DNA of 38,762 bases from Acidimicrobiales bacterium (GCA_050744165.1 JBOGGN010000242.1:1-38762); one strand, 5' to 3'. Positions 9,839 to 38,762 are shown, counted from the first letter of the stretch. Made by a program: numbers and translations. The notes: a model not told the origin generated them from the sequence alone.

Positions 9839-9990
9839 CTTTCCATGGCGGGCTCGGGGTCGCCCACCGCGGAGGCGCAGGGCCGTCGCCCCCTTTCCAG
9901 CGCCAGGGTGGAAAAATGCCCCGCCCCCCAGGAGCCCGCGCGTGGGGCCGCCCGACGACAGGGTGGGACGGCGCCCTACCCTGAATACCC

Positions 9991-10242: not shown

Positions 10243-10320
10243 TCGGTGCTGAGGTTTTACCCAGGCTGTGGATAAACCTGGGGAGAGTCACACAACTGTA
10301 ACTTTGCCGACGCCTCGAGT

Positions 10321-10629: not shown

Positions 10630-10729
10630 GCCGACCGAGGATAGTCGTGGCTCGCCCTTCAGGGTTCTCGGCCTGCTGGGAGCGGAAGTCGGAGGTGTTC
10701 GGTGCCGGTCACCTCTACGCTGACCGTCT

Positions 10730-11338
10730 GTGGTGCCGCGGGTGCTGGTTCTCGACAACTACGACAGCTTCGTTTACAACCTGGTTCAGTACTTGGGCGA
10801 GTTGGGCGCCGAGCCCCTGGTGTTCCGTCACGATGCCATCGGCCTAGATGCGGTGGCTGACCTGGGCCCCGATGCCGTGCTCGTCTCTCCTGGGCCCGGG
10901 CGGCCCGAGGATGCCGGGGTCAGCAACGACCTCATCGCGGCTATGGGCGCCGCGGGCACACCGCTGCTCGGCGTCTGCCTCGGTCACCAGTGCATCGGCC
11001 AGGTCTTCGGCGGGAGGGTCGTGCGGGCGGCGTCGGTCATGCACGGCAAGACGTCGATGGTCCACCACGACGGCCGGGGCGTCCTGTCGGGCCTGGCCAA
11101 TCCGTTTCGGGCTACCCGGTACCACTCGCTGGTGGTCGACCCCGCCTCCGTGCCCGCCGCCCTTGAGGTCTCGGCCTGGACCGACGACGGCACGGTGATG
11201 GGGCTGCGCCACCGTGAGTTTCCGATCGAGGGGGTCCAGTTCCACCCCGAATCGATCCTGACCGATGACGGCCACCGGTTGCTGGCCAACTGGTTGCACC
11301 TGGAAGCGCCCACACCGGGGACCGCGGCCTCCAGCTGA
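10730..11338 (+). CDS. trpG: Class-I glutamine amidotransferase: anthranilate synthase component II / aminodeoxychorismate synthase GATase subunit
   Basis: GTG start. Carries the GATase-1 catalytic triad context (LLGVCLGHQCIG with Cys, then HPESI). It sits in the conserved position between crgA and pknB. The trpG versus pabA choice is unresolved. Confidence 0.82.
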   Translation: MVPRVLVLDNYDSFVYNLVQYLGELGAEPLVFRHDAIGLDAVADLGPDAVLVSPGPGRPEDAGVSNDLIAAMGAAGTPLLGVCLGHQCIGQVFGGRVVRAASVMHGKTSMVHHDGRGVLSGLANPFRATRYHSLVVDPASVPAALEVSAWTDDGTVMGLRHREFPIEGVQFHPESILTDDGHRLLANWLHLEAPTPGTAASS

Positions 11339-21302: not shown

Positions 21303-21541
21303 GTCGGGTATGACGAGTCTTGGCGATGTGGGCGAATGTTAACTATCGACAGAGTTACCATAGCGGTTTATATATATTGTCCGTTCTATCTCGACAGATC
21401 CCATGGGCATTAGTAAGGTATGACCGCTTTAGGCGGGAGCCAAGCAACAGGGGGAGGAACCCTAAATCGTTATCGATAGACGGGGACCATCTCCGTCGGT
21501 TCGTGTTGCACACCTCGAACCAGGGTCTGAAGGAGCGCTTC
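21303..21541. promoter_or_regulatory. AT-rich divergent promoter/operator region between SBP gene and giant surface-protein gene
   Basis: A local GC drop includes a TA-rich block TTTATATATATT (21367-21378). Three copies of TATC(T)CGA(C/T)AGA lie at 21345, 21387 and 21471, spaced 42 and 84 bp. The third copy sits in the palindrome TATCGATA. A GAAGGAG SD lies 6 nt before the ATG at 21542. Confidence 0.45.
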
Positions 21542-24500: not shown

Positions 24501-27500
24501 CGTCGGCGTCGGTCGCGGTAAGCGGGACTGTGAGCGACACCGCCATCCTGTCGGGCGGGTCCAACCCCACGGGGACCATTACCTTCGAGCTGTTCGGGCC
24601 GGTGGCGGGCTGCACCGGCGCCCCGATCTTCACCGCCACCAAGCCGGTGACCGGCGACGGCGCCTACTCGTCGGGCACCTTCACCCCGACCGCCCCGGGC
24701 ACCTACAACTTCGAGGCGTCCTACAGCGGCGATGCCAACAACAACGCCATCCCCCTGACCGCCTGCGGGGCGGCGGGCGAGAACGTGACCGTGACCCCGG
24801 CCACCCCGGCCATCGTCACCATGGCCTCGGCGTCGGTGGCGGCCGGGGGCACGATCAGTGACACTGCCACCCTGACCGGTGGCGACGCCCCCACGGGGAC
24901 CATCACTTTCACCGTCTATGGGCCGGGCAATACGACGTGCGCCGGGACCGGGGTCGCCAGCCACACGGTGGCGGTCACCGGCGACGGCAGCTACGCCTCG
25001 GGCAGCTTCCCCGCCGCCATCGCGGGCACCTACCGGTTCATCGCGGCCTACAGCGGCGACGCCAACAACTCGGCGGAGTCGACGGGCTGCAACGACGCCA
25101 ACGAGAGCGTGGTGGTGACCCCCGCCGCCCCGACACTCGTCACCCATGCCTCCTCGACGGTCGCTGCGGGCGGCACGATCCAGGACACGGCGACCCTGTC
25201 CGGTGGCGCCTCCCCGATGGGCACCATCACCATCACTTTGTTCGGCCCCAACAACGCCGCCTGCACCGGCACCCCGATCCAGTCGACGACCGACCCGGTG
25301 AACGGCGACGGCGACTACACCTCGACGCCGTTCGTCGTCAACGCGGCCGGCACCTACCAATACGTTGCCGTGTATGGCGGTGACGCCAACAACGCAGGTG
25401 CCACCAGCGCCTGCGGCGCGGCCAACGAGTCGGTGGTGGTGACGCCGGCGGCGCCCACCATCGCGACCCAGGCGTCGGCGCCGGTGGCGGTCGGCAACCC
25501 GATCACCGACGTCGCCACGCTCTCGGGCGGGGACAACCCGACGGGGACCATCACCTTCAACGTGTTCGGCCCCCACAACGCCACCTGCACCGGCGCCCCG
25601 GTGTTCTCCTCGACGATGGCGGTAACCGGCGACGGCAACTACACCTCCAACCCGTTCACGCCCACCATGGCGGGCACCTATCGGTTCGTCGACAGCTACT
25701 CCGGTGACGCCAACAACGCTCCCACCGCGTCCGCGTGCGGCGCGGCCAACGAGTCGGTGGCGGTCGGCGTCGCCAGCCCCACGATCGTGACTACGGCGTC
25801 GGCGCCGGTGGTGGCGGGCGGCAACATCAGCGACATCGCCGTCCTCTCCGGCGGGGTGACGCCGAGCGGGACGATCACCTTCGATGTGTTCGGACCCAAC
25901 AACGCCACCTGCACCGGCGCCCCCTTGTTCACCTCGACGGTCCCGGTGGCCGGCAATGGCAGCTATGCGTCGGCGCCGTTCACCACGACCTTGGCGGGCA
26001 CCTACCAGTTCGTCGCCTCCTACAGCGGAGATGCCAACAACGGCGCCGTGACCAGCGCCTGTGATGCCGCCAACGAGAGCGTCGTGGTGGCCAAGGCGGG
26101 CCCGGCCATCGCCACCCAGGCCTCGGCTCCGGTGACGGTGGGCGGCGCCATCAGCGACAGCGCGACCCTGTCGGGCGGCACCGGGCCGTCGGGCACCATC
26201 ACCTTCCAGGTCTTCGGCCCCAACAACGCCACCTGCACCGGCGCCGCGGCATTCACGTCCAGCGTCACCGTCGCCGGCAACGGCACCTACGCGTCGATGA
26301 GCTTCACGCCGACCCAGCCCGGGACGTACCGCTTCGTGGCCACCTACGGCGGCGACGCCAACAACGCCGCCGCCGGACCCACCTCATGCGGGGACCCGGC
26401 CGAGTCGACGGTGGTATCGCCCGGCGCCACGACCATCGTCACCAAGGTGTCGGGGTCGACGACCGTCGGCGGGACGATCACCGACACTGCCACCCTGGCG
26501 GGCGGGGTCAACCCGACCGGGACCATCACCTTCCAGGTGTTCGGGCCCAACAACGCCACCTGCACCGGCATCCCGGCGTTCACCTCGACGGTGCCCGTGA
26601 CCGGCAACGGCAACTACACCTCGGCAACCTTCACCGTGCCCGGGGCTGGGACCTACGGTTTCGTGGCCACCTACAGCGGTGACACCGCCAACAGCCCCGC
26701 TGGTCCCACCGCCTGCTCGGATCCCAACGAGACGACGACGGCGACCAAGGTGTCGCCGACCATCTCCACCATGGCGTCGCCCACCGGCACTGTTGGCGGC
26801 GCCATCACCGACACCGCCACCCTGACGGGGGGCTTCAACCCCACCGGGACCATCACCTTCCAGGTCTTCGGGCCCAACAACACGACCTGCACCGGCGCCC
26901 CGGCGGCGACCTCGACGGCGCCGGTCAGCGGGTCGGGCAACTACACCTCGGCGCCGTTCTCCCCGACTGCGCCCGGGAGCTACCAGTTCGTGGCCACCTA
27001 CGGCGGTGACGCCAACAACAACGCCGCCGGCCCGACAGCGTGCAACGACCCAGCGGAAACAGCGACGGTGACCCCCTCGGCGGTCACCTTCTCGACGACC
27101 GCGTCCCCATCGGCCGACGTGGGCCAGCCCATCTTCGACACCGCCGATCTGACCGGCAGCGGCACCCCGACCGGGACGATCACCTACAACCTCTTCGGCC
27201 CCAACAACGCCACCTGCACCGGTGCGCCGGCGTTTACCACCACCGTCAACGTGAACGGCTCGGGGATGTACACCTCGGCAAGTTTCACCCCGACCGCAGC
27301 CGGCACCTACGAGTGGGTGGACACCTATAGCGGCGACGCCACCACCGCCCCGGCCGGGCCGACGCCGTGCAACGACGCCGCCGAGTCCGTGGTGGTGCTG
27401 CCGACGCCGCAGATCGCGGTGACCAAGGCCGCCAACCCGACCAGCGAACCCGAGCCGGGCGGCAACTTCACCTTCACCGTCACCGTCAGCAATCCCTCGA

Positions 27501-29737
27501 CGGTTGACCCAGTGATGATCACTTCTTTGGTGGACAACATCTACGGCAACCTGGCCACCCTGCCCGGTTCAACCTGCGGCACCCTCATCGGCATCACCCT
27601 TCCGCCGGGGGCGACCACGCCGCCGTGCACGTTCACCGGAGCCTTCAACGGAAGGGCGCCTGCCTCCCAGACCGACACCGTCACGGTCACCGGCGTCGAC
27701 TCCCACGGCATCACCGTCACCGCCACGGCCATGGCGACGGTCACCCTGACCCCGGTCCTGCCGACCATCAGTGTCACCAAGGCGGCCAACCCGCCCAGCC
27801 TGCCGGCGCCCGGAGGCACGTTCACCTTCACCGTCCAAGTCCACAACCCCAACACGGTGGACCCGATCACCATCACCTCGCTGGTGGACAACATCTACGG
27901 TGACCTCTCCACCCGGGCCGGCTCAACCTGCGGCGCCCTGATCGGCGTCACCCTGGCACCCGGCGCCACCTCCTCGCCGTGCACCTTCACCGGCCCCTTC
28001 ACCGGGGTGTCCGGAGCCACCCAGACCGACACCGTCACTGTGACCGGCATGGACAGCAACGGCAACAAGGCCACCGCCACCGCCAACGCCACCGTCGCCC
28101 TGACACCGGGGCTGATGCCGGTGATCAGCGTCAGCAAGGCGGCCAACCCCCTAACCCTGCCGGCGCCCGGCGGCACCTTCACCTTCACGGTCCAGGTGAC
28201 CAATCCGAGCACGACCGACCCGATCACGATCACCTCGTTGGTGGACAACATCTACGGTGACCTGTCCACCCGGGCCGGGTCGACCTGCGGCGCCCTGATC
28301 GGCGTCACCCTGGCTCCCGGCGCCACCTCTTCGCCGTGCACCTTCACCGGCCCCTTCACCGGGGTGTCCGGGGCCAGCCAGACCGACACCGTCACGGTGA
28401 CCGGCATGGACAGCAATGGCAACACGGCCACCGCAACGGCCATGGCCACCGTCTCCCTGACGCCGGCCATCACGCCCGAGATCAGCGTGACCAAGGCGGC
28501 CAGCCCGGCCACCCTGCCGGCACCGGGTGGGACGTTCACCTTCACGGTGCAGGTCCACAACCCGAGCACCGTCGATCCGGTGACGATCACCTCGCTGGTG
28601 GACAACATCTACGGCGACCTCTCGACGATCACCGGCTCGACCTGCGGCGCCCTGATCGGCGTCACCCTGGCTCCTGGCGGCACGTCGGCGCCGTGTACCT
28701 TCCCGGGTTCGTTCACGGGCAACTCGGGTGCCAGCCAGACCGACACGGTCACGGTGACCGGCAAAGACAGCAACGGCAACACGGTCACCGCTACCGCCAA
28801 CGCCACCGTGTCGCTGACGCCCGGTCCCACGCCTCAGATCAGCGTCAGCAAAACGGCCGACCCGCTGAGCAAGCCAGCCCCCGGCGGAACATTCACCTTC
28901 ACAGTGGAGGTGACCAACCCAAGCACGACCGACCCGATCACCATCACCTCGCTGGTGGACAACATCTACGGCGACCTGACGAAGATCTCCGGCTCCACCT
29001 GTGGCGCCCTGATCGGCGTGACACTGGCACCCGGCGCCTCCTCGGCCCCGTGCACCTTCCCGGGCTCGTTCACGGGCAAGTCGGGCGACAGCCAGACGGA
29101 CACGGTGACCGCCACCGGCAAGGACACCAACGGCACGACAGTGACCGCGACGGCCATGGCGACCGTCACGCTGACCCCGCCGGCGCCCACGACCACCACG
29201 TCGACCTCGACGACCTCGACGACCTCGACCACGGCGACGTCCGCCCCGCCCGCGACGCCGGTGATCGCGGTCACCAAGGCCGCCAACCCCATCAGCCTTT
29301 CGGCGCCAGGCGGTACGTTCATCTTCACGGTGGTCGTGTCCAACCCGAGCACGACCGTCCCGGTCAAGATCACCTCGCTGGTGGACAACATCTACGGCGA
29401 CCTGACGAAGATCTCCGGCTCGACCTGCGGAACCCTGATCGGCGTCACGCTCAGCCCCGGCCAGAGCTCCTCGCCGTGCAGCTTCCCGGGGAGTTTCACC
29501 GGATCGGGTGGCGATACCCAGACCGACACGGTGACCGTCACCGGGGTCAACCCGGCTAACCCGTCCGGTACCCCGGTCACCGCCACCGCCAAGGCGACGG
29601 TCAGCATCATCGCCGCCACGTCGACGCCACTCGCCCTGACCGGCTTGGACGACCGGCGACCGCTGACGATCGGCTTTGGGCTCATCGCCGCCGGCCTGCT
29701 GGTTCTGGCGCTGTGCTGGCGCCGGCGCCTCAACTGA
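21542..29737 (+). CDS. Giant (2731 aa) cell-surface repeat protein: signal peptide, N-terminal domain, 16 Ig-like repeats, 6 DUF11-like repeats, LALTG sortase-type anchor
   Basis: The ATG at 21542 has an AAGGAG SD. The signal peptide is ALGLAIAVVPFVVTIPDAFA. Sixteen ~108-aa repeats match ...PTGTITF.(V/L)FGP.N..CTG.P.FTS...V.GNG.Y.S..FT....GTY.FVA.YSGD.NN......CG..NE.V.V. Six ~122-aa repeats match TFTFTV.V.NPSTVDPITITSLVDNIYGDL....STCG.LIGVTLAPG....CTF.G.F.G.....QTDTVTVTG.D..G. A Thr/Ser linker follows. The C-terminus reads LALTG-LDDRRPLTIG-FGLIAAGLLVLALCW-RRRLN. Confidence 0.85.
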   Translation: MGHEGQHRRRSSVARRTLQGALGLAIAVVPFVVTIPDAFAGVGFGVVPTFPSVVTVGQTGLPANLTIQNTSTTPDNASNVTLSTIDLVPACGTTFGTAPINDCPIANADPGVFTLSPTGTGQAGTACAGTTFTITTVDPATGQVSFSPSTPVVLQPPGTGPGGALAECVIDFTFTVNMGPTHVDANGQVDQLGFASGTNTLGHTGSGAGSSAVTVNLATLGITTSATSTATVGGGITDTATVSAAAPPGPAPTGTITFTAFTNSTCSGAPAFTSNAITVTGTGNYTSTPPFVTTAPGSVFWIASYSGDVSNAPVATHCGDAGETTTVNQAVPTIVTAASTTATIGGPISDSAVLANGLNPTGTITFTAFGPGNATCTAPAAFTSAPLAVAGNGTYMSGPFTPTTPGTYLWVASYSGDTNNAAVATPCGDMGETSTVNKATPAIVTTASGSGPVGSVISDSAVLSGGVDTPTGTITFNVFGPDNASCTGAPVFTSTATVNGNGTYSSSMFTTTAAGTYLFVASYSGDANNNAVASACGAANESVTITKASPAIATTPSPSVTAGGLVSDSATLSSGVNPTGTITFTLFGPGNPTCTGAAIFTSTASVNAGNGVYNSAAFTTTTPGTYNWVASYSGDANNNAVASTCASETVVVTQAHPTIMTQASASVPVGGTITDTATLAGGVSPTGTITFSIFAPGNPTCAGAPVATSMVPVTGNGNYVSAPFTTTAVGTYMFVVIYSGDTANASATSACGAANEAVTTTQATPTIATTPSVSVPVGGAVSDSATLANGLSPTGSITFTLFGPGNPTCTGAQVFTSNPIPVTGNGTYTSNTFTATMAGSYNWIATYSGDANNHSVASTCASETVVVTTTTPKIVTNASLTVPVGGTISDTATLSNGVNPTGTITFDVFGPNDATCSTVPAFTSVVSVTSGNGTYSSGPFTAVMAGTYRFVAMYSGDANNAAVTTMCNDPNESVVVTTVTPSLSTTASASVAVSGTVSDTAILSGGSNPTGTITFELFGPVAGCTGAPIFTATKPVTGDGAYSSGTFTPTAPGTYNFEASYSGDANNNAIPLTACGAAGENVTVTPATPAIVTMASASVAAGGTISDTATLTGGDAPTGTITFTVYGPGNTTCAGTGVASHTVAVTGDGSYASGSFPAAIAGTYRFIAAYSGDANNSAESTGCNDANESVVVTPAAPTLVTHASSTVAAGGTIQDTATLSGGASPMGTITITLFGPNNAACTGTPIQSTTDPVNGDGDYTSTPFVVNAAGTYQYVAVYGGDANNAGATSACGAANESVVVTPAAPTIATQASAPVAVGNPITDVATLSGGDNPTGTITFNVFGPHNATCTGAPVFSSTMAVTGDGNYTSNPFTPTMAGTYRFVDSYSGDANNAPTASACGAANESVAVGVASPTIVTTASAPVVAGGNISDIAVLSGGVTPSGTITFDVFGPNNATCTGAPLFTSTVPVAGNGSYASAPFTTTLAGTYQFVASYSGDANNGAVTSACDAANESVVVAKAGPAIATQASAPVTVGGAISDSATLSGGTGPSGTITFQVFGPNNATCTGAAAFTSSVTVAGNGTYASMSFTPTQPGTYRFVATYGGDANNAAAGPTSCGDPAESTVVSPGATTIVTKVSGSTTVGGTITDTATLAGGVNPTGTITFQVFGPNNATCTGIPAFTSTVPVTGNGNYTSATFTVPGAGTYGFVATYSGDTANSPAGPTACSDPNETTTATKVSPTISTMASPTGTVGGAITDTATLTGGFNPTGTITFQVFGPNNTTCTGAPAATSTAPVSGSGNYTSAPFSPTAPGSYQFVATYGGDANNNAAGPTACNDPAETATVTPSAVTFSTTASPSADVGQPIFDTADLTGSGTPTGTITYNLFGPNNATCTGAPAFTTTVNVNGSGMYTSASFTPTAAGTYEWVDTYSGDATTAPAGPTPCNDAAESVVVLPTPQIAVTKAANPTSEPEPGGNFTFTVTVSNPSTVDPVMITSLVDNIYGNLATLPGSTCGTLIGITLPPGATTPPCTFTGAFNGRAPASQTDTVTVTGVDSHGITVTATAMATVTLTPVLPTISVTKAANPPSLPAPGGTFTFTVQVHNPNTVDPITITSLVDNIYGDLSTRAGSTCGALIGVTLAPGATSSPCTFTGPFTGVSGATQTDTVTVTGMDSNGNKATATANATVALTPGLMPVISVSKAANPLTLPAPGGTFTFTVQVTNPSTTDPITITSLVDNIYGDLSTRAGSTCGALIGVTLAPGATSSPCTFTGPFTGVSGASQTDTVTVTGMDSNGNTATATAMATVSLTPAITPEISVTKAASPATLPAPGGTFTFTVQVHNPSTVDPVTITSLVDNIYGDLSTITGSTCGALIGVTLAPGGTSAPCTFPGSFTGNSGASQTDTVTVTGKDSNGNTVTATANATVSLTPGPTPQISVSKTADPLSKPAPGGTFTFTVEVTNPSTTDPITITSLVDNIYGDLTKISGSTCGALIGVTLAPGASSAPCTFPGSFTGKSGDSQTDTVTATGKDTNGTTVTATAMATVTLTPPAPTTTTSTSTTSTTSTTATSAPPATPVIAVTKAANPISLSAPGGTFIFTVVVSNPSTTVPVKITSLVDNIYGDLTKISGSTCGTLIGVTLSPGQSSSPCSFPGSFTGSGGDTQTDTVTVTGVNPANPSGTPVTATAKATVSIIAATSTPLALTGLDDRRPLTIGFGLIAAGLLVLALCWRRRLN
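22190..27400 (+). repeat. Coding tandem array: 16 diverged ~325-bp units (Ig-like domain repeats) inside the giant gene
   Basis: The unit containing TGTITF and YSGDANN recurs 16 times with ~50-70% aa identity. Antisense ORFs with ~330-bp periodicity in the six-frame track are echoes of this array. Confidence 0.85.
27401..29610 (+). repeat. Coding tandem array: 6 ~365-bp units (DUF11-like conserved repeat domain), two copies near-identical
   Basis: ITSLVDNIYGDL occurs six times. The units starting near 27830 and 28190 are almost identical at protein level (ITITSLVDNIYGDLSTRAGSTCGALIGVTLAPGATSSPCTFTGPFTGVSGA). A Thr/Ser linker at about 29180-29260 separates units 5 and 6. Confidence 0.8.
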
Positions 29738-29777
29738 CAAGGGCTCGCCGCAAGGCCGTGGTCATCGCCGCAGGCTG

Positions 29778-29819
29778 AACCCGCAACCCGCAACCCGCAA
29801 CCCGCAGCCCGGCAGCCCA
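29778..29819. repeat. Heptanucleotide microsatellite (AACCCGC)x4 plus two degenerate copies in convergent intergenic region
   Basis: The sequence aacccgc aacccgc aacccgc aacccgc agcccgg cagccc is read directly. Confidence 0.8.
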
Positions 29820-29936
29820 CCCGGGCACAGCGGCCACGGCCCGGCAACGCTGGCCTGCGGGCGACATCGCGGCGCGCCTGGGAGATCGCCGAGTGCCACC
29901 ATCTGCCTAAGCGGTTAGGGAACTCCTGGGGCCTCG

Positions 29937-29983
29937 GGGTGACCCGAATACCTGGCCCCATGCGGTAGCTATTCGGGCCACCC
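29937..29983. terminator. Candidate bidirectional terminator hairpin between convergent surface-protein genes
   Basis: GGGTGACCCGAAT (29937-29949) pairs with ATTCGGGCCACCC (29971-29983), 12 of 13 complementary, around a 21-nt loop. There is no clear U-tract. Confidence 0.3.
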
Positions 29984-29993
29984 AGCCGGGCGA

Positions 29994-32906
29994 CTACTGC
30001 GAGCGGCGCGGTAGTCGCCGCCGCCGGCGCCAGGTGACGCCCAGGCTGAGCAGGCCGGCCAGGATGAGCATGCCACCGGCGATGGTCGGGTCCTGGATCC
30101 GTGCCCCGGTGAGCGACAGCGAGGAGGTCGCGGTCGTCGTCGTGGTCCCCGAGCCAGTGGGCGCTGCGGTCACGGTGATCGAGACCTGCGCCCTCAGCGA
30201 GGCATCGGCCGTGCTGGCAACGATCGTGTGCTGGCCGGGCGCGGTGGCCGCGGGAATGACAACGGTGGCCGCAAAGTTCCCGAGAGAGTTTGCCGTCGCC
30301 ATTCCGAGCGACACCGGGCTGCTGAGAAGGTCCATCTGGAGTTCGCTGCCGGCCGGGAAGCCGCTGCCGGTGACCATGGTCGGCTGGCCAGCCGGCACGG
30401 AATTGGGGTTCACCTGAACCGTCGGAGTACCTGTGGTGGTGGTGGTTGCCCCCAGCGTGCTCGACGTTGTCGAAGAGCTCGTGGTCGAGGATCTCGTCGT
30501 GGTCGTTGTCGACCCGACTGTCGAGGATGTGGTTGACCCCACTGTCGTGGTTGTCGTCGGGGCAGTGGTGGTGCTGCTGGTCGTGCTGCTCGAGGTCGTG
30601 CTGCTCGAGGTGGTGGTCGCACTCACCGTGACCGTCTCGGCGGCCTCACCGCAGGCGGTGGGCCCAGCCGGGAGGGAGTCTGGGTCGCCGTCGTAGGACG
30701 CCAGCCACTGATAGGTACCAACAGCGGTCGAAATGAACGGCTCTGAGGTGTAGCTGCCGTCACCATTGACTGTCACCGTGGTGCTGAAGGCGGCGGTCCC
30801 GGTGCAGGCGGCGTCACCGGGGCCGAAAAGGTTGAAGGTGATTGTCCCGGTCGGCGAAAAGCCGCCAGTGAGGGCAGCCGTGTCGCTCACCGAGCCGCCG
30901 ACGGTCACTGATGCCGAGGCATGAGTGGAGATCGAGGTTGAGGCCCTGATCACGCTGAGGTGTTCGTTGACCGCCCCGCAGGCACTGGTCACGGGGTTGT
31001 TGTTGCTGTCCCCGCTGTAGACGGCGGTCCACAGGTAGTCACCCACCTTTTCGGTGGCGAAGGAATCCGAGTCGTACGAGCCGTTGCCGTTGACCCGCAC
31101 GACCGCAGTGAACGCTGGCGTCGCAGAGCAGGTTTGGTCGTTCGGACCGAACAGGCTGAAGGTGATCGATCCGGTGGGGATGCGACCGCCCGACAGCGCG
31201 GCCGAGTCGCTGACCGATCCACCCACCGCGACCGTCGGGGACGCCATCGTCGCGATTGTCGGCGTGGCCATCGCCAGCACCGTGGTCGTCGTGGGTCCTG
31301 TGGTGGTTGTGGTCGGGCCGGTGGTGGTTGTGGTCGGGCCGGTGGTGGTTGTCGTCGTCGCCGGGAGCGTGGTGGTGGTGGTCGAGGTGGTTGTGGTTGT
31401 TGGGCCGGTTGTGGTTGTGGTGGTTGCCGGGACCGTGGTCGTGGTGGTGGTGGTGCTCGTAGAGGTCGTCGTCGTACTGGTACTGCTTGACGTGGTGGTC
31501 GTGGAGCTGACGATGACCGTCTCGGCGGCGTCGCCGCAGGTGGTGGGCCCTGCTGGGTTAGAGTTGGCGTCGCCGCTGTACGACGCCACCCATTCGTACG
31601 TGCCGGCAGCGGTGGTGGTGAAGAGGCTCGACATGTAGTTGCCGTCGCCGTTGACGGACACCGTGTTGCTGAACGTCACGGTCCCGCTGCAGGTCGGGTC
31701 GCCCGGGCCAAAGAGGTCGAACGTGATGGTTGCGGAGGGCGAGAAACCTCCGGTGAGGGTGGCGGTGTCGCTGATAGAGCCGCCGACGGTGACCGAGGCT
31801 GATGCGTGCGTAGAGATGGTGGTGTTGGCTTTGGTCACTGTCACCGATTCATTCGCCGCGTTGCAGGCGCTGGTCACCGGGTTGTTGTTGCCGTCACCGC
31901 TGTAAGCCGCCGTCCATTGGTAGTTGCCGGTCGACACGGCCACGAAGCTCTCCGAGGAGTAGGTGCCGTTGCCGGAGACCGGCACCATGGCGGTAAAGGC
32001 CGGCGTCGCCGAGCAGTTGGCGTCGTCCGGGCCGAAGAGAATAAAGGTGATCGTGCCGGTGGGCGTGTTCCCGTCCAGGAGAGAGGCGGTGTCACTCACC
32101 GATCCGCCCACGGCCACCGATGCCGAGGCCGCGGTCGTCAGAATGGGCGTCGACGCAGCCGGCGATACCGTCACCTTCTCGTTGCTGTCGAGACAGTTGA
32201 TGTCCGACACAGCCAGGTTGTTACCGTCGCCGCTGTAGGACGCCGTCCACACGTAGGTACCGGTTGTCGTCGGGAAAAAGGGAGCCGACGGGTACATGGC
32301 GTTACCCAGATTCACGGGCACCGAGGTGGTGAAGCTCGGCGCAGTTTGGGCTTGGCAGGCGGCCACGGAGGCCCATAGGTCAAAGGTGATCGTGCCGGTG
32401 GGGCTGACACCCCCGGCCAGTTTGGCGCTGTCGTCGATCGAGCCGCCCACGGCAACGCCGGCCGACGCGGTGGTGGTGAGCACCGGCGCCACTTGGCCCA
32501 CGATCGTCGATTCGGGAGCGTCCGAACACGAGGTCGGTCCGACCGGATTGTTGTTGCCGTCACCGCTGTAGGTGACCTGCCACCGGTAGGTGCCTGCCTG
32601 GCTGGTGGTGAAGCTGGTTGAGTCGTAACTGCCATCGCCCGAGACCGGCACCATCGAGGTGAACGGCGGCGTACCAGCGCAGGTGGAGTTGTCCGGACCA
32701 AATAAGTCGAAAGTCAGCGTGCCCGTCGGCGCGGATCCACCAGACAGATCGATGACATCGAAGATTGCAAGTCCTACCGTCGTGTCGGGGGAGGCGACCG
32801 ATGAAATCGAGGGCGTCGCCAATGCCAACGCCGGCGTCGCAACCGTCCCCACACAGAGGCACGCGAGCGCGACGGCCCCAATGACGCCCCCGAGCCTCCT
32901 GAGCAC
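29994..32906 (-). CDS. 970-aa cell-surface repeat protein, paralog of the giant protein: 6 Ig-like repeats, Thr-rich linkers, terminal Ig-like domain, LSLTG anchor signal
   Basis: The signal peptide is MLRRLGGVIGAVALACLCVGTVATPALALA. The same PTGTITF...YSGDGNN repeat family occurs six times. There are two long Thr/Ser/Gly-Pro linkers. The C-terminus reads LSLTG-ARIQDPTIAGG-MLILAGLLSLGVTW-RRRRRLPRRSQ. Only 36 bp separate it from the upstream gene on the same strand. Confidence 0.85.
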   Translation of the reverse strand: MLRRLGGVIGAVALACLCVGTVATPALALATPSISSVASPDTTVGLAIFDVIDLSGGSAPTGTLTFDLFGPDNSTCAGTPPFTSMVPVSGDGSYDSTSFTTSQAGTYRWQVTYSGDGNNNPVGPTSCSDAPESTIVGQVAPVLTTTASAGVAVGGSIDDSAKLAGGVSPTGTITFDLWASVAACQAQTAPSFTTSVPVNLGNAMYPSAPFFPTTTGTYVWTASYSGDGNNLAVSDINCLDSNEKVTVSPAASTPILTTAASASVAVGGSVSDTASLLDGNTPTGTITFILFGPDDANCSATPAFTAMVPVSGNGTYSSESFVAVSTGNYQWTAAYSGDGNNNPVTSACNAANESVTVTKANTTISTHASASVTVGGSISDTATLTGGFSPSATITFDLFGPGDPTCSGTVTFSNTVSVNGDGNYMSSLFTTTAAGTYEWVASYSGDANSNPAGPTTCGDAAETVIVSSTTTTSSSTSTTTTSTSTTTTTTTVPATTTTTTGPTTTTTSTTTTTLPATTTTTTGPTTTTTGPTTTTTGPTTTTVLAMATPTIATMASPTVAVGGSVSDSAALSGGRIPTGSITFSLFGPNDQTCSATPAFTAVVRVNGNGSYDSDSFATEKVGDYLWTAVYSGDSNNNPVTSACGAVNEHLSVIRASTSISTHASASVTVGGSVSDTAALTGGFSPTGTITFNLFGPGDAACTGTAAFSTTVTVNGDGSYTSEPFISTAVGTYQWLASYDGDPDSLPAGPTACGEAAETVTVSATTTSSSTTSSSTTSSTTTAPTTTTTVGSTTSSTVGSTTTTTRSSTTSSSTTSSTLGATTTTTGTPTVQVNPNSVPAGQPTMVTGSGFPAGSELQMDLLSSPVSLGMATANSLGNFAATVVIPAATAPGQHTIVASTADASLRAQVSITVTAAPTGSGTTTTTATSSLSLTGARIQDPTIAGGMLILAGLLSLGVTWRRRRRLPRRSQ
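31290..31352. repeat. 21-bp tandem repeat (2 perfect + 1 degenerate copy) encoding a GPTTTTT linker repeat in the 970-aa surface protein gene
   Basis: The unit ggtcgggccggtggtggttgt lies at 31311-31331 and 31332-31352, with a degenerate copy at 31290-31310. Confidence 0.75.
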
Positions 32907-32942
32907 GCCAAAGGATATCAGTTGGTCCCTGTTCAGGCCGAA

Positions 32943-33905
32943 TTAGTAGGCGTCGATGTCGCCGGTCGTCCCGATTGCAATATGGGGCCCGGCCCCCGGT
33001 TGGAGCCATTGGAGCAACGCAATCAGGTCGGATGAAGGAAGGCTTACACAACCGTTGGTGGGCCTACCTAACGATACGTGGAGAAAAATAGCCGAACCCC
33101 TCCCAGGAACGACCGGGCTGGCGTTGTATTCGATAACCGCGAAGTAGTCATATGCCGGCGCTTCGGTCCACAAGGCCTCGCTCCCGCCTCCGAAGGGATT
33201 CTCGGTGCTGCAGGAACCAACGTGCTGGAAGGTGTTGTACTCCGGCGAGGATGGCTCCTCGTCCCACCAGTCGCCGCAGACCAGGACGTGGTAGCTGCCG
33301 TGAACACCAGGGTTGGGGTCGATGCCGTAGAACGTCGAGCCGATGCCGAACAGCCCGATCGGGGAGGTGCCGTCGCCTTCAATCTTGTCGCTGCTCAGTC
33401 CGTGGAGGCCGACCCAGCCTGACCACGGTCCCCCTGCCACGGTCCAGCAGGTCCCGGTCCGTTGCCACAAGGTCACGACCGCAGTGGTGGCCGCGGTGGA
33501 ACTGGCCACGACGGTCACCAACTGGCTGCCGCCGCCCGTGGCCTTCATCTGATTGGCGGGCGTGGCGGTGCAGGCCGCGGCGGTGGTGCTGACAGGGGCG
33601 GCGATCGTGGTCTGCACGCGCTGGGCAGTGGTCGTAGTCGCGGCCTGCGCCGTCGTCGGGGCGGCGAGGCTTGTCGTGCTGGCGATCGCGGGCACCGTCG
33701 AGGAGGTGGTGGTCGTTGCCGTCGTCACCGAGGTGGTGGCGGCCAGCGTGGTGCTCGATTGCAGGTGGGCAGCACCGGAGGTCCTCGCGCCACCACATGC
33801 GGCGGTCGCCAGCAGGGTCGCCACCGCGGCCCAAGCTCTCGTCCGGCGACGGCGTGCTGCCGGCGGCGTTTCCCACGGGCGAGGGGCGGTGGGTGACCGG
33901 TTCAT
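32943..33905 (-). CDS. L,D-transpeptidase (YkuD-fold) family lipoprotein with Thr-rich linker
   Basis: The lipobox is LLATAAC. After a Thr/Ala-rich linker comes a YkuD-like core: GDGTSPIGLFGI, then FLHVS...GRPTNGCVSLPSSDLIALLQWL (compare ...H.S....SHGC[VI][RN][LV] in known Ldt). Asn replaces the His usually preceding the catalytic Cys. Confidence 0.6.
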   Translation of the reverse strand: MNRSPTAPRPWETPPAARRRRTRAWAAVATLLATAACGGARTSGAAHLQSSTTLAATTSVTTATTTTSSTVPAIASTTSLAAPTTAQAATTTTAQRVQTTIAAPVSTTAAACTATPANQMKATGGGSQLVTVVASSTAATTAVVTLWQRTGTCWTVAGGPWSGWVGLHGLSSDKIEGDGTSPIGLFGIGSTFYGIDPNPGVHGSYHVLVCGDWWDEEPSSPEYNTFQHVGSCSTENPFGGGSEALWTEAPAYDYFAVIEYNASPVVPGRGSAIFLHVSLGRPTNGCVSLPSSDLIALLQWLQPGAGPHIAIGTTGDIDAY

Positions 33906-34758
33906 GCAGCTGCCCGGACCTTATCGTGGTGGCGTGTTCGGCCCACGACGCCCCCGTGGCACCGCCGCGGGTCTGGTCGCGTTGGTTCTCGTGGCCGCCG
34001 GATGCGGGGGACCCGTGGCTTCGAAGGAGCTGCGCGGCACCACCACCTTGCCTCGAGGCACGACCTCTACCGCCTCCATGGTCCTCGGCGACACCACAAC
34101 CTCAAGCACCGTGCCCGCCAGTTCGTCGACCACCCGAGCGGCGACCTCGACGACCAGCACCACCGCTGTGGCCTCGTCGAGCTTCGTCGGAACCGAGGCG
34201 ACGATCACCGCCGCCGACGTGCCCTACACCTGGCGGTCCGGATGCCCCGTAGGACCGACCCAACTCCGGATGCTGCACCTCAGTTATTGGGGCTTCGACA
34301 ACCAGCCCCACGTTGGCACCATGGTGGTCAACGCTGCCGTGGTAGCCGACGTCTTCAAGGTTTTCTCGACCCTGTTCGCGGAACATTTCCCGATTCAGCA
34401 GATGCAGCCCGAGGACGCCTACCAGGGCAGCGACCCGGCCTCGATGGTCGCCGATAACACCTCGGGTTTCAACTGCCGCAATGCCGTGGTGCCCCCAGGT
34501 CAACCAACGTCGTGGTCAGTTCACGCCTACGGGGAAGCAATCGACGTCAACACCGTTCAGAATCCCTACGTCGAGGGTGGCACCGTGATGCCGCCCGGTG
34601 GGGCCGCCTACCTCAACCGCTCCGCTTACCGCCCCGGGATGGCGGTACCGGGCGGCCAGCTCGTCGCCGCCTTCGCCTCGGTGGGCTGGCAATGGGGCGG
34701 CCGCTGGGCCTCGACAGGAACGCCTGACTACCAGCACTTCTCGCTCACCGGCGGCTGA
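33904..34758 (+). CDS. Peptidase M15 (VanY / D-Ala-D-Ala carboxypeptidase-like, LAS metallopeptidase) lipoprotein
   Basis: Has a lipoprotein signal (LVALVLVAAGCGG) and a Thr/Ser linker. An H-x6-D zinc motif (SVHAYGEAIDVN) and a terminal His (DYQHFS) are present. The ATG at 33904 overlaps the divergent Ldt start on the opposite strand. An alternative GTG lies at 33934. Confidence 0.68.
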   Translation: MQLPGPYRGGVFGPRRPRGTAAGLVALVLVAAGCGGPVASKELRGTTTLPRGTTSTASMVLGDTTTSSTVPASSSTTRAATSTTSTTAVASSSFVGTEATITAADVPYTWRSGCPVGPTQLRMLHLSYWGFDNQPHVGTMVVNAAVVADVFKVFSTLFAEHFPIQQMQPEDAYQGSDPASMVADNTSGFNCRNAVVPPGQPTSWSVHAYGEAIDVNTVQNPYVEGGTVMPPGGAAYLNRSAYRPGMAVPGGQLVAAFASVGWQWGGRWASTGTPDYQHFSLTGG

Positions 34759-34778
34759 GCCCGCGGTCAGCGGCTCAG
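34755..34778. terminator. Hairpin spanning both stop codons of convergent genes (candidate bidirectional terminator)
   Basis: CTGAGCC (34755-61) pairs with GGCTCAG (34772-78) around a 10-nt loop. It overlaps TGA 34756-58 on the plus strand and TGA 34777-75 on the minus strand. Confidence 0.3.
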
Positions 34779-35329
34779 GTGCCTGGGTAGGGGATTTGGG
34801 CAGAGGGACATTGGAAGCCTCCACTGATTTGGACGTTGCCGACCTCGACGGTTGCGCCGTCTGCGCCCGTGCCCACGAAGTTGGCCAGCGTCAGGACGAA
34901 GTCCCCCGCACCGGTAGCGATTGACTGCATTGCCTCCTCATAGAGCACACGGTTGGGATACTGCGGGTTGATGAGGATGGCTGCGCCGGGCACGACGATG
35001 ACCGCTGTGGGGGCTGCCAGCACCGAATGGGCGGGGGTGCCCGGTCCCCCTGCCGGCAGATCGATGCGAACGAACATCCCGCCCTTCGGGGCGGCGCCGC
35101 AAGTGACCTTGGTCACCGTGACCTGGGGGTAGAACGGCGCCTGGAGGACACCGGGAGTCACGCCGTCAATGGTCAGGCTGGTTGCGCTCGGGGTGGTCGA
35201 GGTCGTTGTTGCCGCGACCGTCGTGGTCGTCTGGCCAACGCTCGATTTGCTGCAGCCCGCCAGGCAGGCGGCGGCCAGGCAGAGCGCGGCTAGCCACAGC
35301 CCCGCGACGGTGGCCGATCGATGCTCCAC
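34775..35329 (-). CDS. Hypothetical lipoprotein with Thr-rich linker
   Basis: Has a signal peptide plus lipobox (LWLAALCLAAACLAGCS) and a TTTTVAATTTSTTPS linker. No recognisable catalytic motif was found. Confidence 0.6.
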   Translation of the reverse strand: MEHRSATVAGLWLAALCLAAACLAGCSKSSVGQTTTTVAATTTSTTPSATSLTIDGVTPGVLQAPFYPQVTVTKVTCGAAPKGGMFVRIDLPAGGPGTPAHSVLAAPTAVIVVPGAAILINPQYPNRVLYEEAMQSIATGAGDFVLTLANFVGTGADGATVEVGNVQISGGFQCPSAQIPYPGT

Positions 35330-35368
35330 GCTGCGTTGCCCCCTCCTTGTGCGTCCCCCAGAGAGAGA

Positions 35369-35719
35369 TTAGCTGCACCTTTCGTCGGACTCGGTGTACT
35401 GGGTCTTCCCTACGTTGACCACCATGGGGCCGGTACAGCTCTTGCCCGAGGCACTGGCGTTCAGGGTGGCGGTGATCATGGTCCCGCTGGAGGTGAACCC
35501 GAGGCAATCGACGATGCCCGGCGCTTGGCCGAAGCAGCTGATCGATCCCTTGTAGTCGACGTTGTGGGCGTGCAACACCTGAACGACGTCGGCGGCAGTG
35601 GCCGTGCGCACGACCGATTTACTAGGGCCCTTGGCGCTCTTGCTGCCGCAACCGCCGGCCAGCAGGGTGACGACGGCGGCGGCGCAAAGGCCGAGGCTTA
35701 CCTGGTGCGACACAGACAT
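35369..35719 (-). CDS. Small hypothetical Cys-rich lipoprotein (116 aa)
   Basis: The ATG at 35719 is Met66 of the track ORF. The lipobox is LLAGGCGS, followed by four further Cys (SCFG...DCLG...SCTG...ERCS). Confidence 0.5.
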   Translation of the reverse strand: MSVSHQVSLGLCAAAVVTLLAGGCGSKSAKGPSKSVVRTATAADVVQVLHAHNVDYKGSISCFGQAPGIVDCLGFTSSGTMITATLNASASGKSCTGPMVVNVGKTQYTESDERCS

Positions 35720-35816
35720 GTGGAGATAGTCGCCGATTCTCTCGCCCGGGTCCAGCCCCGGGCCCCCGGCCCCCGCTAGGCCTGGCATCAGCCGCGGGCC
35801 GCTAGGGTCGCCGAGG

Positions 35817-36839
35817 ATGGCATTGGGTACCCGGCCGGCACGCCCGACTCGCCGTCGCAGACGGCCCTGGTTGTTCTTCGCCCTGCTGGCCACGGTACTC
35901 GTCCTCGTTGTCAACGCCGCCCTGTCGGCTCGCTCGCCCGGTCCCGTCCGCCAGCAGGCGGAGCAGTCTTACCTGGACCAGGTCCTGCCGGGGGTGCAGC
36001 AGTCGAGTCAGCAAGGCTTGGATGTCGGCAACCTCTTGAGCCAGGCACTGACCCTGTCCCCCACGACGCTCGCCAATCACCTGGACGAGGACTTTTCCCA
36101 GGCCCAACAGACTTTGGCGGTGGTGGAAAAATTGAACCCCCCGACCGCCATGAAGACACCTCAGTCGTTGCTGGTGTCGGCGTTGGCTCTTCGCGCGTCG
36201 GGCACCAAGGCACTGGGCCAGGCGATCACCACCGCACTCAGCAATCAGCCCCAGGTGTCGGCGGTCAGCGCCCTGGCCAGCGCGGGACTCGACCTCGAGG
36301 CCTCCGATCGCGCCTACGCCCTTTTCCAGCAGGCGGTACCGGCCTCCGGTGGCATCGTCCCCAAGTCGGTGTGGGTCGCCGACACCTCGACCTACACGAC
36401 GCCGATGCTCTCGGTCTTCGTGAACAGCCTCCGTGCCCATACCAGCCTGACTCCCGTCGTGGCGGTGGCGGTCGTGGCGGTGACCACCGACCCAGCACCG
36501 GTGAATCTCCTCAACGGGGTCCAGATCCTGCCCGTCGCCGGTACCCTCAGTCTGCAGGTCGTGGTTGCCAACACCGGCAACCAGCAGGAGCCGAACCTGA
36601 CGGTCATGGCCAGCATCGCGCCGTCGCAGAGCGGCCCGACGCAGAGCGTCCGCAACTTCATCGGTCTCAGTCCGGGCGAATCCAAAACGGTGGGTCTCGG
36701 CCCCCTCCGGATGATCCCCGGCCAGGCCACCACGCTCACCGCGACTGTCACGCCGAGCGTCTCGACGACCGCCACAACGGTTGGGGGCCAATCGGCCATA
36801 CCGGACAACAGCCAGGTCATCATGCTCGAAATGCAGTGA
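35817..36839 (+). CDS. Hypothetical N-terminally membrane-anchored secreted protein
   Basis: Has an Arg-rich N-region plus a TM/signal anchor (RRRRRPWLFFALLATVLVLVVNAALSA), followed by a Gln/Ala-rich helical region and a Thr/Val-rich C-terminal domain. No family was recognised. Confidence 0.55.
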   Translation: MALGTRPARPTRRRRRPWLFFALLATVLVLVVNAALSARSPGPVRQQAEQSYLDQVLPGVQQSSQQGLDVGNLLSQALTLSPTTLANHLDEDFSQAQQTLAVVEKLNPPTAMKTPQSLLVSALALRASGTKALGQAITTALSNQPQVSAVSALASAGLDLEASDRAYALFQQAVPASGGIVPKSVWVADTSTYTTPMLSVFVNSLRAHTSLTPVVAVAVVAVTTDPAPVNLLNGVQILPVAGTLSLQVVVANTGNQQEPNLTVMASIAPSQSGPTQSVRNFIGLSPGESKTVGLGPLRMIPGQATTLTATVTPSVSTTATTVGGQSAIPDNSQVIMLEMQ

Positions 36840-36854
36840 GCTAAGGGATTCGCG

Positions 36855-36931
36855 TCACGGGCACCGTGAGATTTCGTCACCTGGTGCGTTGTCTGTGTAA
36901 CGTTGGTGCGCCTGCCGGGAACGATTCCCGG
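36855..36931. promoter_or_regulatory. Two palindromic candidate operators in the lower-GC region upstream of the mini-ORF operon
   Basis: TCACGGgcaCCGTGA lies at 36855-36869 and CCGGGAacgatTCCCGG at 36915-36931. Both sit in a 135-bp lower-GC stretch (…ttgtctgtgtaacgttgg…) between the stop at 36839 and the ATG at 36976. Confidence 0.35.
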
Positions 36932-36975
36932 CAAAGCGGCCATATCGACCAGGGTCGAGGGCGGACGGAGTAGCT

Positions 36976-37128
36976 ATGTACGGAAAGACAGCGGTCACCG
37001 GAGTAGCAGGGTCGGGGATACTGGCCGTGACCGGTCGCCCCGTCTGGGGATTGGTCCTCTTCGGCGCAGTGCTGATCATGCTCGGCCTATTGCTGTTGCG
37101 CGTAGTGAGCGTTCGGAGCTACCGCTGA
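36976..37128 (+). CDS. 50-aa mini-protein consisting essentially of a sortase-type C-terminal sorting signal (LAVTG + TM + basic tail)
   Basis: It is not in the ORF track because it is under 60 aa. The ATG at 36976 has a GGAG SD 5 nt upstream. The product is MYGKTAVTGVAGSGILAVTGRPVWGLVLFGAVLIMLGLLLLRVVSVRSYR, with a TGA stop at 37126-37128. The ATG of the next gene lies 7 nt further on. Confidence 0.45.
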   Translation: MYGKTAVTGVAGSGILAVTGRPVWGLVLFGAVLIMLGLLLLRVVSVRSYR

Positions 37129-37134
37129 GCCAAG

Positions 37135-37710
37135 ATGCCGGTCATCCACGACGCTCCGTCGTTTCCGGACCAATCCGCTCCGGAGGACCGACCGACCGCG
37201 CTCGACCGGCCGGTCGCCATCGCTGTTTTCGCAGTGGCGGCGGCATTGCTGATCTGGGAGGCCCGCTTCCGAGTGATCGAGGCTTCCGTCTCGGCATGGA
37301 CGATCCGGTTGTTCCGGGTCCGACCGGCGCGCTCCCTCGGTCCGGACGTGATCTTTCCCCTCGGCCACCGCTGGGTCGGGTTCGCGCTGACCTTGTCCTG
37401 CACCTCGGCGCTGCTCATGGTGCCGTTCTTCGTGATCGCCGGAGTGCTCCTGCTCTTCCGGAGGGTCCCGCGGCGCCGTGCGCTAGTTGCGTTGGCGGTG
37501 GCGGCCGCCGTCCTGTTTGCCATCAACCAGCTGCGCCTAGTCGTGATCGCGGCGTCGATGCTCTGGTGGGGCTTCGAGACGGGCTACCAGCGCAGCCACG
37601 TGCTGCTCGGAACCACACTCAGCACTATCGGCGTGATCATCGGAATCATCATCTTCGTCTGGATGCTGGTCGAGGATCCGAGTCGTCGTACTCGACGGAC
37701 CGCCTCATGA
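37135..37710 (+). CDS. Small polytopic membrane protein (5-6 TM); possible exosortase/archaeosortase-family core (inference)
   Basis: The 191-aa product has hydrophobic helices at about aa 27-40, 80-107, 116-130, 135-146 and 156-178. A Cys lies in a TM (LTLSCTSAL, C89). An N-x-x-R (AINQLRL, N131/R134) sits about 45 aa downstream. A His-containing segment (RSHVLLGT) follows. This arrangement recalls the Cys/Arg active-site spacing of exosortases. It is translationally coupled to the mini-ORF. Confidence 0.55.
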   Translation: MPVIHDAPSFPDQSAPEDRPTALDRPVAIAVFAVAAALLIWEARFRVIEASVSAWTIRLFRVRPARSLGPDVIFPLGHRWVGFALTLSCTSALLMVPFFVIAGVLLLFRRVPRRRALVALAVAAAVLFAINQLRLVVIAASMLWWGFETGYQRSHVLLGTTLSTIGVIIGIIIFVWMLVEDPSRRTRRTAS

Positions 37711-37783
37711 AAGCCCTTCTCTTGCTGTCCCGTAACAACCAACACAACGTCAGCCCAGCTAGTTCCAGCCCTTTGGAGGAGTT

Positions 37784-38665
37784 ATGAGTTCAGGTCGCCT
37801 TCGGCTCTCACTTGGCAAGTTTGCCGGGGCCGGACTGATCGCAACGGTGGTCTTGGGGATGGCAGCAGCCTCGCCTGCCTTCGCCGACACATCGACTGCC
37901 ACTGCCAACGCAGCCACACTGCAACTCGGGTCATCGACCCTCCTCACGACCGGGCAGTGCACCAGCAGCAACCCCGGGTCTGGGGCAAATGACACCTGCG
38001 GCCAGACACCTAGCCTCAGCCTCCTCGGCACCCAGACGGCGATCGAGGCGGGTCTGCTGGTTCAGCAGACCGTCGCCCGGGCCGACGGCACCTCGGCCGC
38101 GTGCGCTGGACTGGTCGGCACCGGCGGGACCATCCAGATCGGCGCCGGGGGAACCTGCACCGTCACCGGCGCGGCTCCCGGCGGTGTCCAGCTGAACTTG
38201 GGCTTGGCCACGGTGCACGCTGACGCCATCCTGGCCGAATGCACCGCTTCGTCGACCGGGACTCCCACCGCTTCGGTGCAGTTGGTCAACGCCACGATTA
38301 GCCTGCTCGGCGGCGGCACCACCCCCATCATCTCGTCGCCGCCCGCGAACGACACGGCCGTCGACCTGGGTGCCCTGGTCACCGCCACCCTCAACAAGCA
38401 GCCCGCCACGACCCCGGCACCGCCGGCCGGCTCCATCAGTACCTCCGCCCTCGACGTCAGCGTCCTGAGTGGCGTGCTCGGCACACCGCCACTGGTGCAC
38501 CTGACGGTCGGCACCGTCTCCTGCGGTCCCAACGCCGTTACGCCGCCGACGCCCGCCTTCCCGCTGGAGGGCGCTCCTATCGCGGCCGGAATCTTCCTGG
38601 TCGCCGGGTACATCGGGTATCGCTTCTGGTGGACGCCCCGGCGGCGGGCCCAGACTCTGGTCTAG
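37784..38665 (+). CDS. Secreted Thr/Gly/Ala-rich protein with C-terminal tripartite tail (short motif + TM helix + RRR), a candidate dedicated sorting substrate
   Basis: A strong GGAGGAG SD lies 6 nt upstream. The signal peptide is LIATVVLGMAAASPAFA. The mature region is Cys-containing and low in complexity. The C-terminus reads ...TPAFPLEG-APIAAGIFLVAGYIGYRFWW-TPRRRAQTLV. Confidence 0.7.
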   Translation: MSSGRLRLSLGKFAGAGLIATVVLGMAAASPAFADTSTATANAATLQLGSSTLLTTGQCTSSNPGSGANDTCGQTPSLSLLGTQTAIEAGLLVQQTVARADGTSAACAGLVGTGGTIQIGAGGTCTVTGAAPGGVQLNLGLATVHADAILAECTASSTGTPTASVQLVNATISLLGGGTTPIISSPPANDTAVDLGALVTATLNKQPATTPAPPAGSISTSALDVSVLSGVLGTPPLVHLTVGTVSCGPNAVTPPTPAFPLEGAPIAAGIFLVAGYIGYRFWWTPRRRAQTLV

Positions 38666-38762
38666 GCGGCCACCCGCCCCAGGCGTCGGTCGCTTGCGGG
38701 TTGGTTCCGCAACGTCAGCTAACTGCGCCAAACTGGTAGACGGCCGAGCCGGATTCCCGGCT

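Follow-up and report, generated by a model that had tools for sequence, protein, structure and literature searches.

The window analyzed here is a 38,762-nucleotide (nt) stretch of DNA from an Acidimicrobiales bacterium (GCA_050744165.1, JBOGGN010000242.1:1-38762), in which a gene encoding a 320-amino-acid (aa) lipoprotein of the YkuD family is followed on the same strand by a gene encoding a 970-aa surface protein with a C-terminal LSLTG motif. The functional and evolutionarily conserved partner of the enzyme is most likely not this surface protein but a zinc-peptidase lipoprotein of the M15 family, whose gene adjoins that of the enzyme on the other side (Table 1). We hold with moderate confidence that the M15 and YkuD lipoproteins form a module that processes the stem peptides of peptidoglycan, in which the YkuD step would be hydrolytic and downstream of which the surface protein gene was inserted.

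The neighborhood of the enzyme gene was compared across its family by taking 80 genomic loci and matching their open reading frames (ORFs) to the proteins of the window. Among the 76 loci that have enough upstream sequence, 66 have a gene for an M15_4 zinc peptidase directly adjoining the enzyme gene, either divergent from it (57 loci) or in tandem, with the M15 gene upstream (9 loci). The tandem M15 and YkuD genes overlap in several of the nine loci, and in five of them an in-frame ATG within the M15 gene, 48 nt from its 3' end, opens a conserved N terminus, M(D/E)R(F/V)TGLS, and probably marks where the YkuD gene begins. Downstream of the enzyme gene, the neighbor differs from locus to locus and, judged from sequence endings, includes cyclophilin-like, LuxR-like, ArgC-like, and other genes. 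The M15 protein of the window has a lipobox cysteine (Cys34) and the invariant residues H136, H207, D214, and H278, of which the last three are presumably the zinc ligands, as in the motifs of the LAS family.

The divergent YkuD and M15 genes both start within a single CATG, the minus-strand ATG occupying 33905-33903 and the plus-strand ATG 33904-33906. The M15 gene has an alternative GTG start at 33934, with which only 28 nt would separate the two starts. Either start of the M15 gene implies that the promoter of each gene lies inside the other or that the mRNAs are leaderless. At locus L002 the called YkuD and M15 starts are about 500 nt apart, and the M15 call there looks truncated.

The assignment of the 320-aa product to the YkuD family, made in the initial annotation, holds in a profile hidden Markov model search, in which it scores 30.8 bits against Pfam family PF03734 (gathering score, 23.4), with residues 159 to 305 matching profile positions 31 to 142 of 146. 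In the signal peptide, an RRRR n-region precedes a lipobox cysteine (Cys37) that is conserved among homologues, and a Thr/Ala-rich linker then extends to approximately residue 110. The predicted structure consists of a disordered linker and a single domain with the YkuD beta-sandwich fold, for which the best two structural matches, ahead by approximately 3 Z units, are the L,D-carboxypeptidases Pgp2 and Csd6, at 14 to 15% sequence identity. In an alignment of 25 family members (alignment A1), His276, Thr283, Gly285, and Cys286 are invariant, as are a CGDWWD motif and three further cysteines (C153, C210, and C232). His276 and the catalytic Cys286 are separated by 10 residues (H-V-X8-C), compared with the published motif H(S/G/D)X14-19C of the YkuD fold, in which the catalytic residues are the upstream His, the backbone carbonyl of a neighboring residue, and the Cys (PMC4599014). 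By its sequence features, the enzyme is an extracytoplasmic lipoprotein with a divergent YkuD fold and what appears to be an intact His/Cys active site.

The active-site motif is PTNGC (T283-N284-G285-C286), and attention had been drawn earlier to the Asn that stands in it in place of the His of SHGC. The substitution is present, but it carries no meaning for function: position 284 is occupied by N, S, D, or A in alignment A1, the catalytic His is a different residue from that of SHGC, and Csd6, an active L,D-carboxypeptidase, carries a lysine (Lys174) before its Gly-Cys (PMC4599014). In a weak hhalign match to a Bacillus subtilis YkuD sequence entered by hand and not taken from a database, TNGC falls on SKGC, which aligns Cys286 with the YkuD Cys. 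Because the position varies and the catalytic His lies elsewhere, Asn284 is not a specialization. The possibility that the enzyme is inactive owing to this Asn was considered and rejected on the same two grounds.

The enzyme has at least 1965 homologues, most of which carry PF03734, and an exhaustive profile search for the family returned 694 representative clusters at E ≤ 1e-30 and 3691 at E ≤ 1e-10. Named homologues come from metagenome-assembled genomes (MAGs) of Acidimicrobiia, and related loci are also found in MAGs of Gaiellales and Thermoleophilia. Wall-binding modules, namely CWB2 and LGFP, occur in other members of the family, which also match SH3b and lectin domains more weakly and below threshold; this points to peptidoglycan as the substrate. 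Fusions of M15 and YkuD domains were sought among the long family members and none was found, wall-binding modules being present instead. A sequence search of the PDB gave no match for the enzyme and one insignificant match (E = 0.67) for the M15 protein, and none of the three proteins (enzyme, 970-aa protein, and M15 protein) received a family name in an NCBIfam scan. The enzyme belongs to a large and uncharacterized Actinomycetota branch of the YkuD superfamily.

For the proposed module, we infer an order in which the M15 enzyme would act first, removing the terminal D-Ala and converting pentapeptide to tetrapeptide in the manner of VanY or DdcY, and the YkuD enzyme would then attack the L,D bond of the tetrapeptide as an L,D-carboxypeptidase, yielding tripeptide as Csd6 and Pgp2 do. 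Carboxypeptidases with a YkuD fold have precedents in Csd6 (PMC4599014) and ElsL (PMC8649774), and the coupling of the two steps has one in the pair DdcY and Ldtfm (PMC4161250), described below. The same two lipoproteins could alternatively serve cross-linking, with 3-3 cross-links formed by YkuD as a true L,D-transpeptidase and the tetrapeptide donors supplied by M15. Both Pfam and the source annotations place the enzyme in the L,D-transpeptidase family, and its His/Cys pair is intact. Cross-links of the 3-3 type are common in Actinomycetota. There is a precedent for such a division of labor in Enterococcus faecium, where the metallo-D,D-carboxypeptidase DdcY produces the tetrapeptide required by the L,D-transpeptidase Ldtfm (PMC4161250). 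The loop between His and Cys is, however, much shorter than in characterized transpeptidases. The model also lacks a separate scaffold domain, of the peptidoglycan-binding or immunoglobulin (Ig)-like kind, such as LdtMt2 has. Trimming is favored over 3-3 cross-linking because the top two structural neighbors are carboxypeptidases and no accessory domain is present, and we regard the transpeptidase role as possible but on balance unlikely.

Three points weigh against a trimming module with an inserted surface protein gene. Hydrolases and transpeptidases of this fold are not separated at the level of sequence; the His-Cys spacing of the enzyme lies outside that of the published motif; and the order of the enzyme gene and an LSxTG gene, with a short gap between them, is retained in five genomes, among which the enzymes are 54 to 70% identical to that of the window. 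As both the order and the short gap have been kept across these genomes, co-expression of the two genes may be of some benefit.

The trimming module also differs in several respects from the systems that it most resembles. Csd6 of Helicobacter pylori and Pgp2 of Campylobacter jejuni are periplasmic enzymes of Gram-negative helical bacteria and have an extra N-terminal dimerization domain, an NTF2-like domain, and a longer His-Cys loop (X14-19), whereas the enzyme described here is a single-domain actinobacterial lipoprotein paired with an M15 peptidase. In E. faecium, ddcY and ldtfm are not neighbors and DdcY acts on cytoplasmic precursors; here, the M15 and YkuD products are both lipoproteins, and their genes are arranged head to head or overlap in most genomes. 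ElsL of Acinetobacter baumannii is a leaderless L,D-carboxypeptidase of the YkuD family with a catalytic Cys (PMC8649774). It is cytoplasmic and recycles muropeptides, in contrast to the enzyme of the window with its signal peptide and lipobox. The short active-site motif of the ElsL branch, which we take to be PTxGC, is presumably similar to that of the enzyme.

The gene pair on which the initial annotation had centered is present as described, with both genes on the minus strand and 36 nt between the TAA stop codon of the enzyme gene (32945-32943) and the GTG start codon of the 970-aa protein gene (32906-32904). A short same-strand gap is common in bacteria and by itself is no more than chance would give. 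The 36-nt spacer contains neither a minus-strand terminator-like site nor a sigma-70-like promoter, the two elements that had been named beforehand as speaking against an operon, and a 101-nt RNA spanning the junction folds no better than shuffled sequences (z = +0.75). The first strong hairpin occurs only past the 970-aa protein gene, starting 11 nt after its stop codon; it has a 14-bp stem with no U tract, was missed by a scan for T-tail terminators, and is a candidate for the end of the transcription unit, lying as it does between convergent genes. The order of enzyme gene and LSxTG gene recurs in four other genomes, with gaps of 41 nt (L002), 20 nt (L083), and 37 nt (L084/85) at the three loci for which gene calls exist and with abutting ORFs in L003. 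Because the gap is short and free of a terminator, the hairpin comes only after the second gene, and the order recurs, the enzyme and surface protein genes are probably co-transcribed by read-through; the operon that had been claimed is plausible on these grounds.

The 970-aa protein begins with the signal peptide MLRRLGGVIGAVALACLCVGTVATPALALA and contains six Big_3_5 Ig-like stretches (57.3 bits) with Thr/Ser-rich linkers. Its C terminus does end in LSLTG instead of LALTG or LPXTG, as first noted; the motif (residues 930 to 934; 30105-30119) is followed by a spacer, ARIQDP, a membrane helix (residues 941 to 959; 30030-30086), and an arginine-rich tail, RRRRRLPRRSQ. Its description as a paralog of another surface protein is likewise borne out by 47% identity over 768 aa to a giant protein of 2805 aa, which ends in LALTG (approximately 29620-29634), a membrane helix, and RRR; the true start of this giant ORF probably lies further downstream. 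The second residue of the motif divides the two paralogues throughout the clade, the enzyme-side protein always having LS[LF]TG and the giant always LA[LF]TG (window, L002, L003, L083, L084, and L086). The Ser at this position is kept in all five orthologues of the 970-aa protein, and the LS[LF]TG protein and the giant have different spacers behind the motif as well. The separate motifs could reflect two different processing enzymes or two destinations. A tandem heptamer, AACCCGC (GCGGGTT on the minus strand), is repeated 4.9 times at 29778-29811, inside the 256-nt spacer between the convergent genes for the two paralogues.

LAxTG is the signal of class E sortases (PMC5148588). The giant protein fits the substrates of the Streptomyces sortases SrtE1 and SrtE2 exactly, including the helix and Arg tail, and the 970-aa protein differs from them only at the second motif position, with Ser for Ala (PMC5148588). 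The C-terminal signal of the 970-aa protein thus appears to be a class E (LAxTG-like) sortase signal, for which no L,D-transpeptidase would be needed. No gene for a sortase was found in the window: a Pfam scan of 24 GC3-selected window ORFs gave no match to a sortase family, and a regular expression for the sortase active site had no match in the window or in 82 loci. A class E sortase gene is located near crgA-pknB in many actinobacteria. In the window, crgA (10321-10758, minus strand) lies beside trpG and pknB, and the crgA-pknB region (9583-10760) contains no sortase gene.

The initial annotation had gone further and suggested that attachment of the 970-aa protein, or local remodeling of the wall, is assisted by the YkuD enzyme. 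An enzyme dedicated to the LSLTG protein, whether for its covalent attachment to peptidoglycan or for wall remodeling during its display, would agree with the single strand, the 36-nt gap, and the missing terminator, and with the conservation of both the arrangement and the LS[LF]TG variant in the window, L002, L003, L083, and L084/85. Attachment of proteins by L,D-transpeptidases is known in Gram-negative bacteria. The Escherichia coli enzymes LdtA, LdtB, and LdtC (ErfK, YcfS, and YbiS) belong to the same YkuD superfamily and attach Braun lipoprotein (Lpp) through its C-terminal Lys, an example of the acceptor amine that such attachment needs. The 970-aa protein, in contrast, has only four Lys residues, all of them inside Ig repeats, and lacks a Lys at its C terminus such as Lpp has; the enzyme and its supposed substrate do not co-occur across genomes.

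The distribution of the LSxTG gene argues in the same direction. The gene comes next after the enzyme gene only in the five genomes just named, which form part of one narrow Acidimicrobiia clade, and sortase-like C-terminal signals near the enzyme gene are likewise found in this clade only; in all of the approximately 70 loci outside it, an LSxTG gene beside the enzyme gene is absent. Even within the clade, the gene is missing beside an intact enzyme gene in L001, L086, and L004, and it is therefore dispensable for the enzyme gene. In L086 the convergent giant gene directly follows the enzyme gene, and L004 keeps the upstream synteny. The L001 contig is 94.4% identical in DNA sequence to window positions 32919-38762 and 91.7% identical to positions 29377-29749, but approximately 73 nt (L001 positions 6858-6930) stand in place of 3.2 kb (window positions 29750-32918). 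Within these 73 nt are remnants of 39 and 29 nt from the Ig repeats of the 970-aa protein gene, and the adjacent enzyme is intact and 96% identical over the region aligned by blastp. This looks like a recent deletion of the 970-aa protein gene, with a chimeric short-read contig as a residual possibility. Collapse of repeats during assembly was considered as a source of the gap and rejected, as the unique signal-peptide and anchor ends are also gone and the flanks align cleanly. A reciprocal search for LSxTG proteins that sit beside this enzyme elsewhere, in which the last 145 aa of the 970-aa protein served as the query, returned only three weak and irrelevant matches. The ancestor of the narrow clade would have gained the 970-aa protein gene by insertion behind the enzyme gene, and some members would later have lost it repeatedly while keeping the enzyme.

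The enzyme family is thus far older and wider than its pairing with the surface protein, the sortase-type signal already accounts for anchoring, and Asn284 offers no sign of specialization. The proposed assistance in anchoring or remodeling is not borne out, and we consider an enzyme dedicated to the LSLTG protein very improbable, the least likely of the readings weighed here. If it were true, anchoring by this enzyme would be a Gram-positive analogue of Lpp-type attachment by L,D-transpeptidases, which the evidence does not support.

Approximately 3 kb beyond the enzyme gene, on the plus strand, the window contains a mini-exosortase cassette (36976-38665), which is also present in L001, L002, L083, L086, and L087-L092. 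The exosortase-family protein has invariant Cys89, Arg134, and His155. An ORF of approximately 50 aa in which L[AP]xTG directly precedes a helix lies beside the mini-exosortase gene in 10 of 10 distinct loci, the motif variants being LAVTG, LATTG, LAATG, LAFTG, LARTG, LAKTG, and LPITG; these tiny ORFs match the NCBIfam family NF058583 ("LAXTG motif-containing small protein") weakly, at 18 to 26 bits against a cutoff of 65. A first metagenome scan for the mini-exosortase found none, and a second scan with a broader alignment found six loci. No paper linking exosortases with LAXTG was found in the searchable literature, and the literature found on XrtP/S/R makes only passing mention of them. A mini-exosortase with a tiny LAxTG partner in the vicinity of LAxTG-type proteins is the more unusual item of this locus and lies outside the pairing of enzyme and surface protein.

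These observations raise the question of whether the whole block of approximately 17 kb is one envelope-display system, made up of the mini-exosortase with its tiny LAxTG neighbor and the 293-aa protein, M15, YkuD, and the lipoproteins, together with both large surface proteins (970 aa, LSLTG; 2805 aa, LALTG). The mini-exosortase, in place of a sortase, would then recognize and cleave the L[AS]xTG-helix-Arg signals at the ends of these two surface proteins, and M15 and YkuD would serve the same system. The profile matches and invariant residues of the exosortase-family protein, the constant association with a tiny L[AP]xTG ORF, the synteny of the block in the window, L001, L002, L083, and L086, and the lack of a sortase gene in the window, including the crgA-pknB region, are all consistent with such a system. 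Several observations run counter to it, however: LAxTG is an established class E sortase signal (PMC5148588), and in the large proteins motif and helix are separated by a charged spacer, as in sortase substrates. The window covers only 39 kb, so that a sortase gene is likely elsewhere in the genome. Furthermore, L084/85 has LSFTG and LAATG proteins with no exosortase within 10 kb, shared synteny confounds the co-occurrence, and the protein beside the exosortase ends in another motif, FPLEGAP. We therefore find a single display system of this kind, with the mini-exosortase recognizing both surface proteins, highly doubtful.

The window has a GC content of approximately 68%. Three clade-conserved genes of no assigned function separate the M15 gene from the exosortase cassette (34775-36839; also in L001-L004, L084, and L086), two of which, at 35369-35914 and 35817-36839, overlap as drawn, so that one start is probably wrong. 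At 1884-4675 on the plus strand, a gene for a DUF459/SGNH protein (338 aa) comes directly after one for an MBOAT acyltransferase (591 aa), a pairing typical for the O-acylation of an extracellular polymer.

Table 1. Features of the window, with positions counted from its first nucleotide
Feature	Position	Strand	Basis or remark
fhaA-fhaB-pstP-rodA-pbpA-pknB-trpG-crgA actinobacterial cluster	10.3-18.9 kb		
Giant paralogue, 2805 aa, convergent with the 970-aa protein gene	21320-29737	+	ORF
Hairpin with 14-bp stem, 3' of the 970-aa protein gene	29937-29983	-	
Ig-repeat surface protein gene, 970 aa, GTG start	29994-32906	-	ORF and Pfam
C-terminal tripartite signal of the 970-aa protein	29997-30119	-	
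Spacer of 36 nt, enzyme gene to 970-aa protein gene	32907-32942	-	
YkuD lipoprotein gene, 320 aa, ATG start	32943-33905	-	ORF and Pfam
Catalytic domain of the enzyme, residues 112-320	32946-33572	-	
Active-site stretch of the enzyme, H276-VSLGRPT-N284-G-C286	33048-33080	-	Alignment A1, n = 25
M15 (LAS-fold) zinc-peptidase lipoprotein gene, divergent from the enzyme gene	33904-34758	+	
Lipoprotein gene, 184 aa	34775-35329	-	
Gene for a protein of ~116-181 aa	35369-35914	-	
Membrane-anchored protein gene, 340 aa	35817-36839	+	
ORF of 50 aa, MYGK...GILAVTGRP-helix-RVVSVRSYR	36976-37128	+	LAVTG directly before helix
Exosortase-family protein, 191 aa	37135-37710	+	TIGR04178, 32.2 bits (cutoff, 23); XrtP/S/R, 79-86 bits
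Secreted protein, 293 aa, ending FPLEGAP-helix-RRR	37784-38665	+	

Taken as a trimming module with a surface protein gene inserted behind it, the locus looks like ordinary cell wall maintenance and not like a new route of protein anchoring. For annotation, some proteins labeled "L,D-transpeptidase" in this branch of the YkuD family may in fact be carboxypeptidases, and the His of SHGC has no diagnostic value. A common actinobacterial YkuD branch whose genes are almost always found beside an M15 peptidase gene would offer a two-enzyme model for the trimming of stem peptides, or for 3-3 cross-linking, in uncultured Acidimicrobiia and Thermoleophilia.

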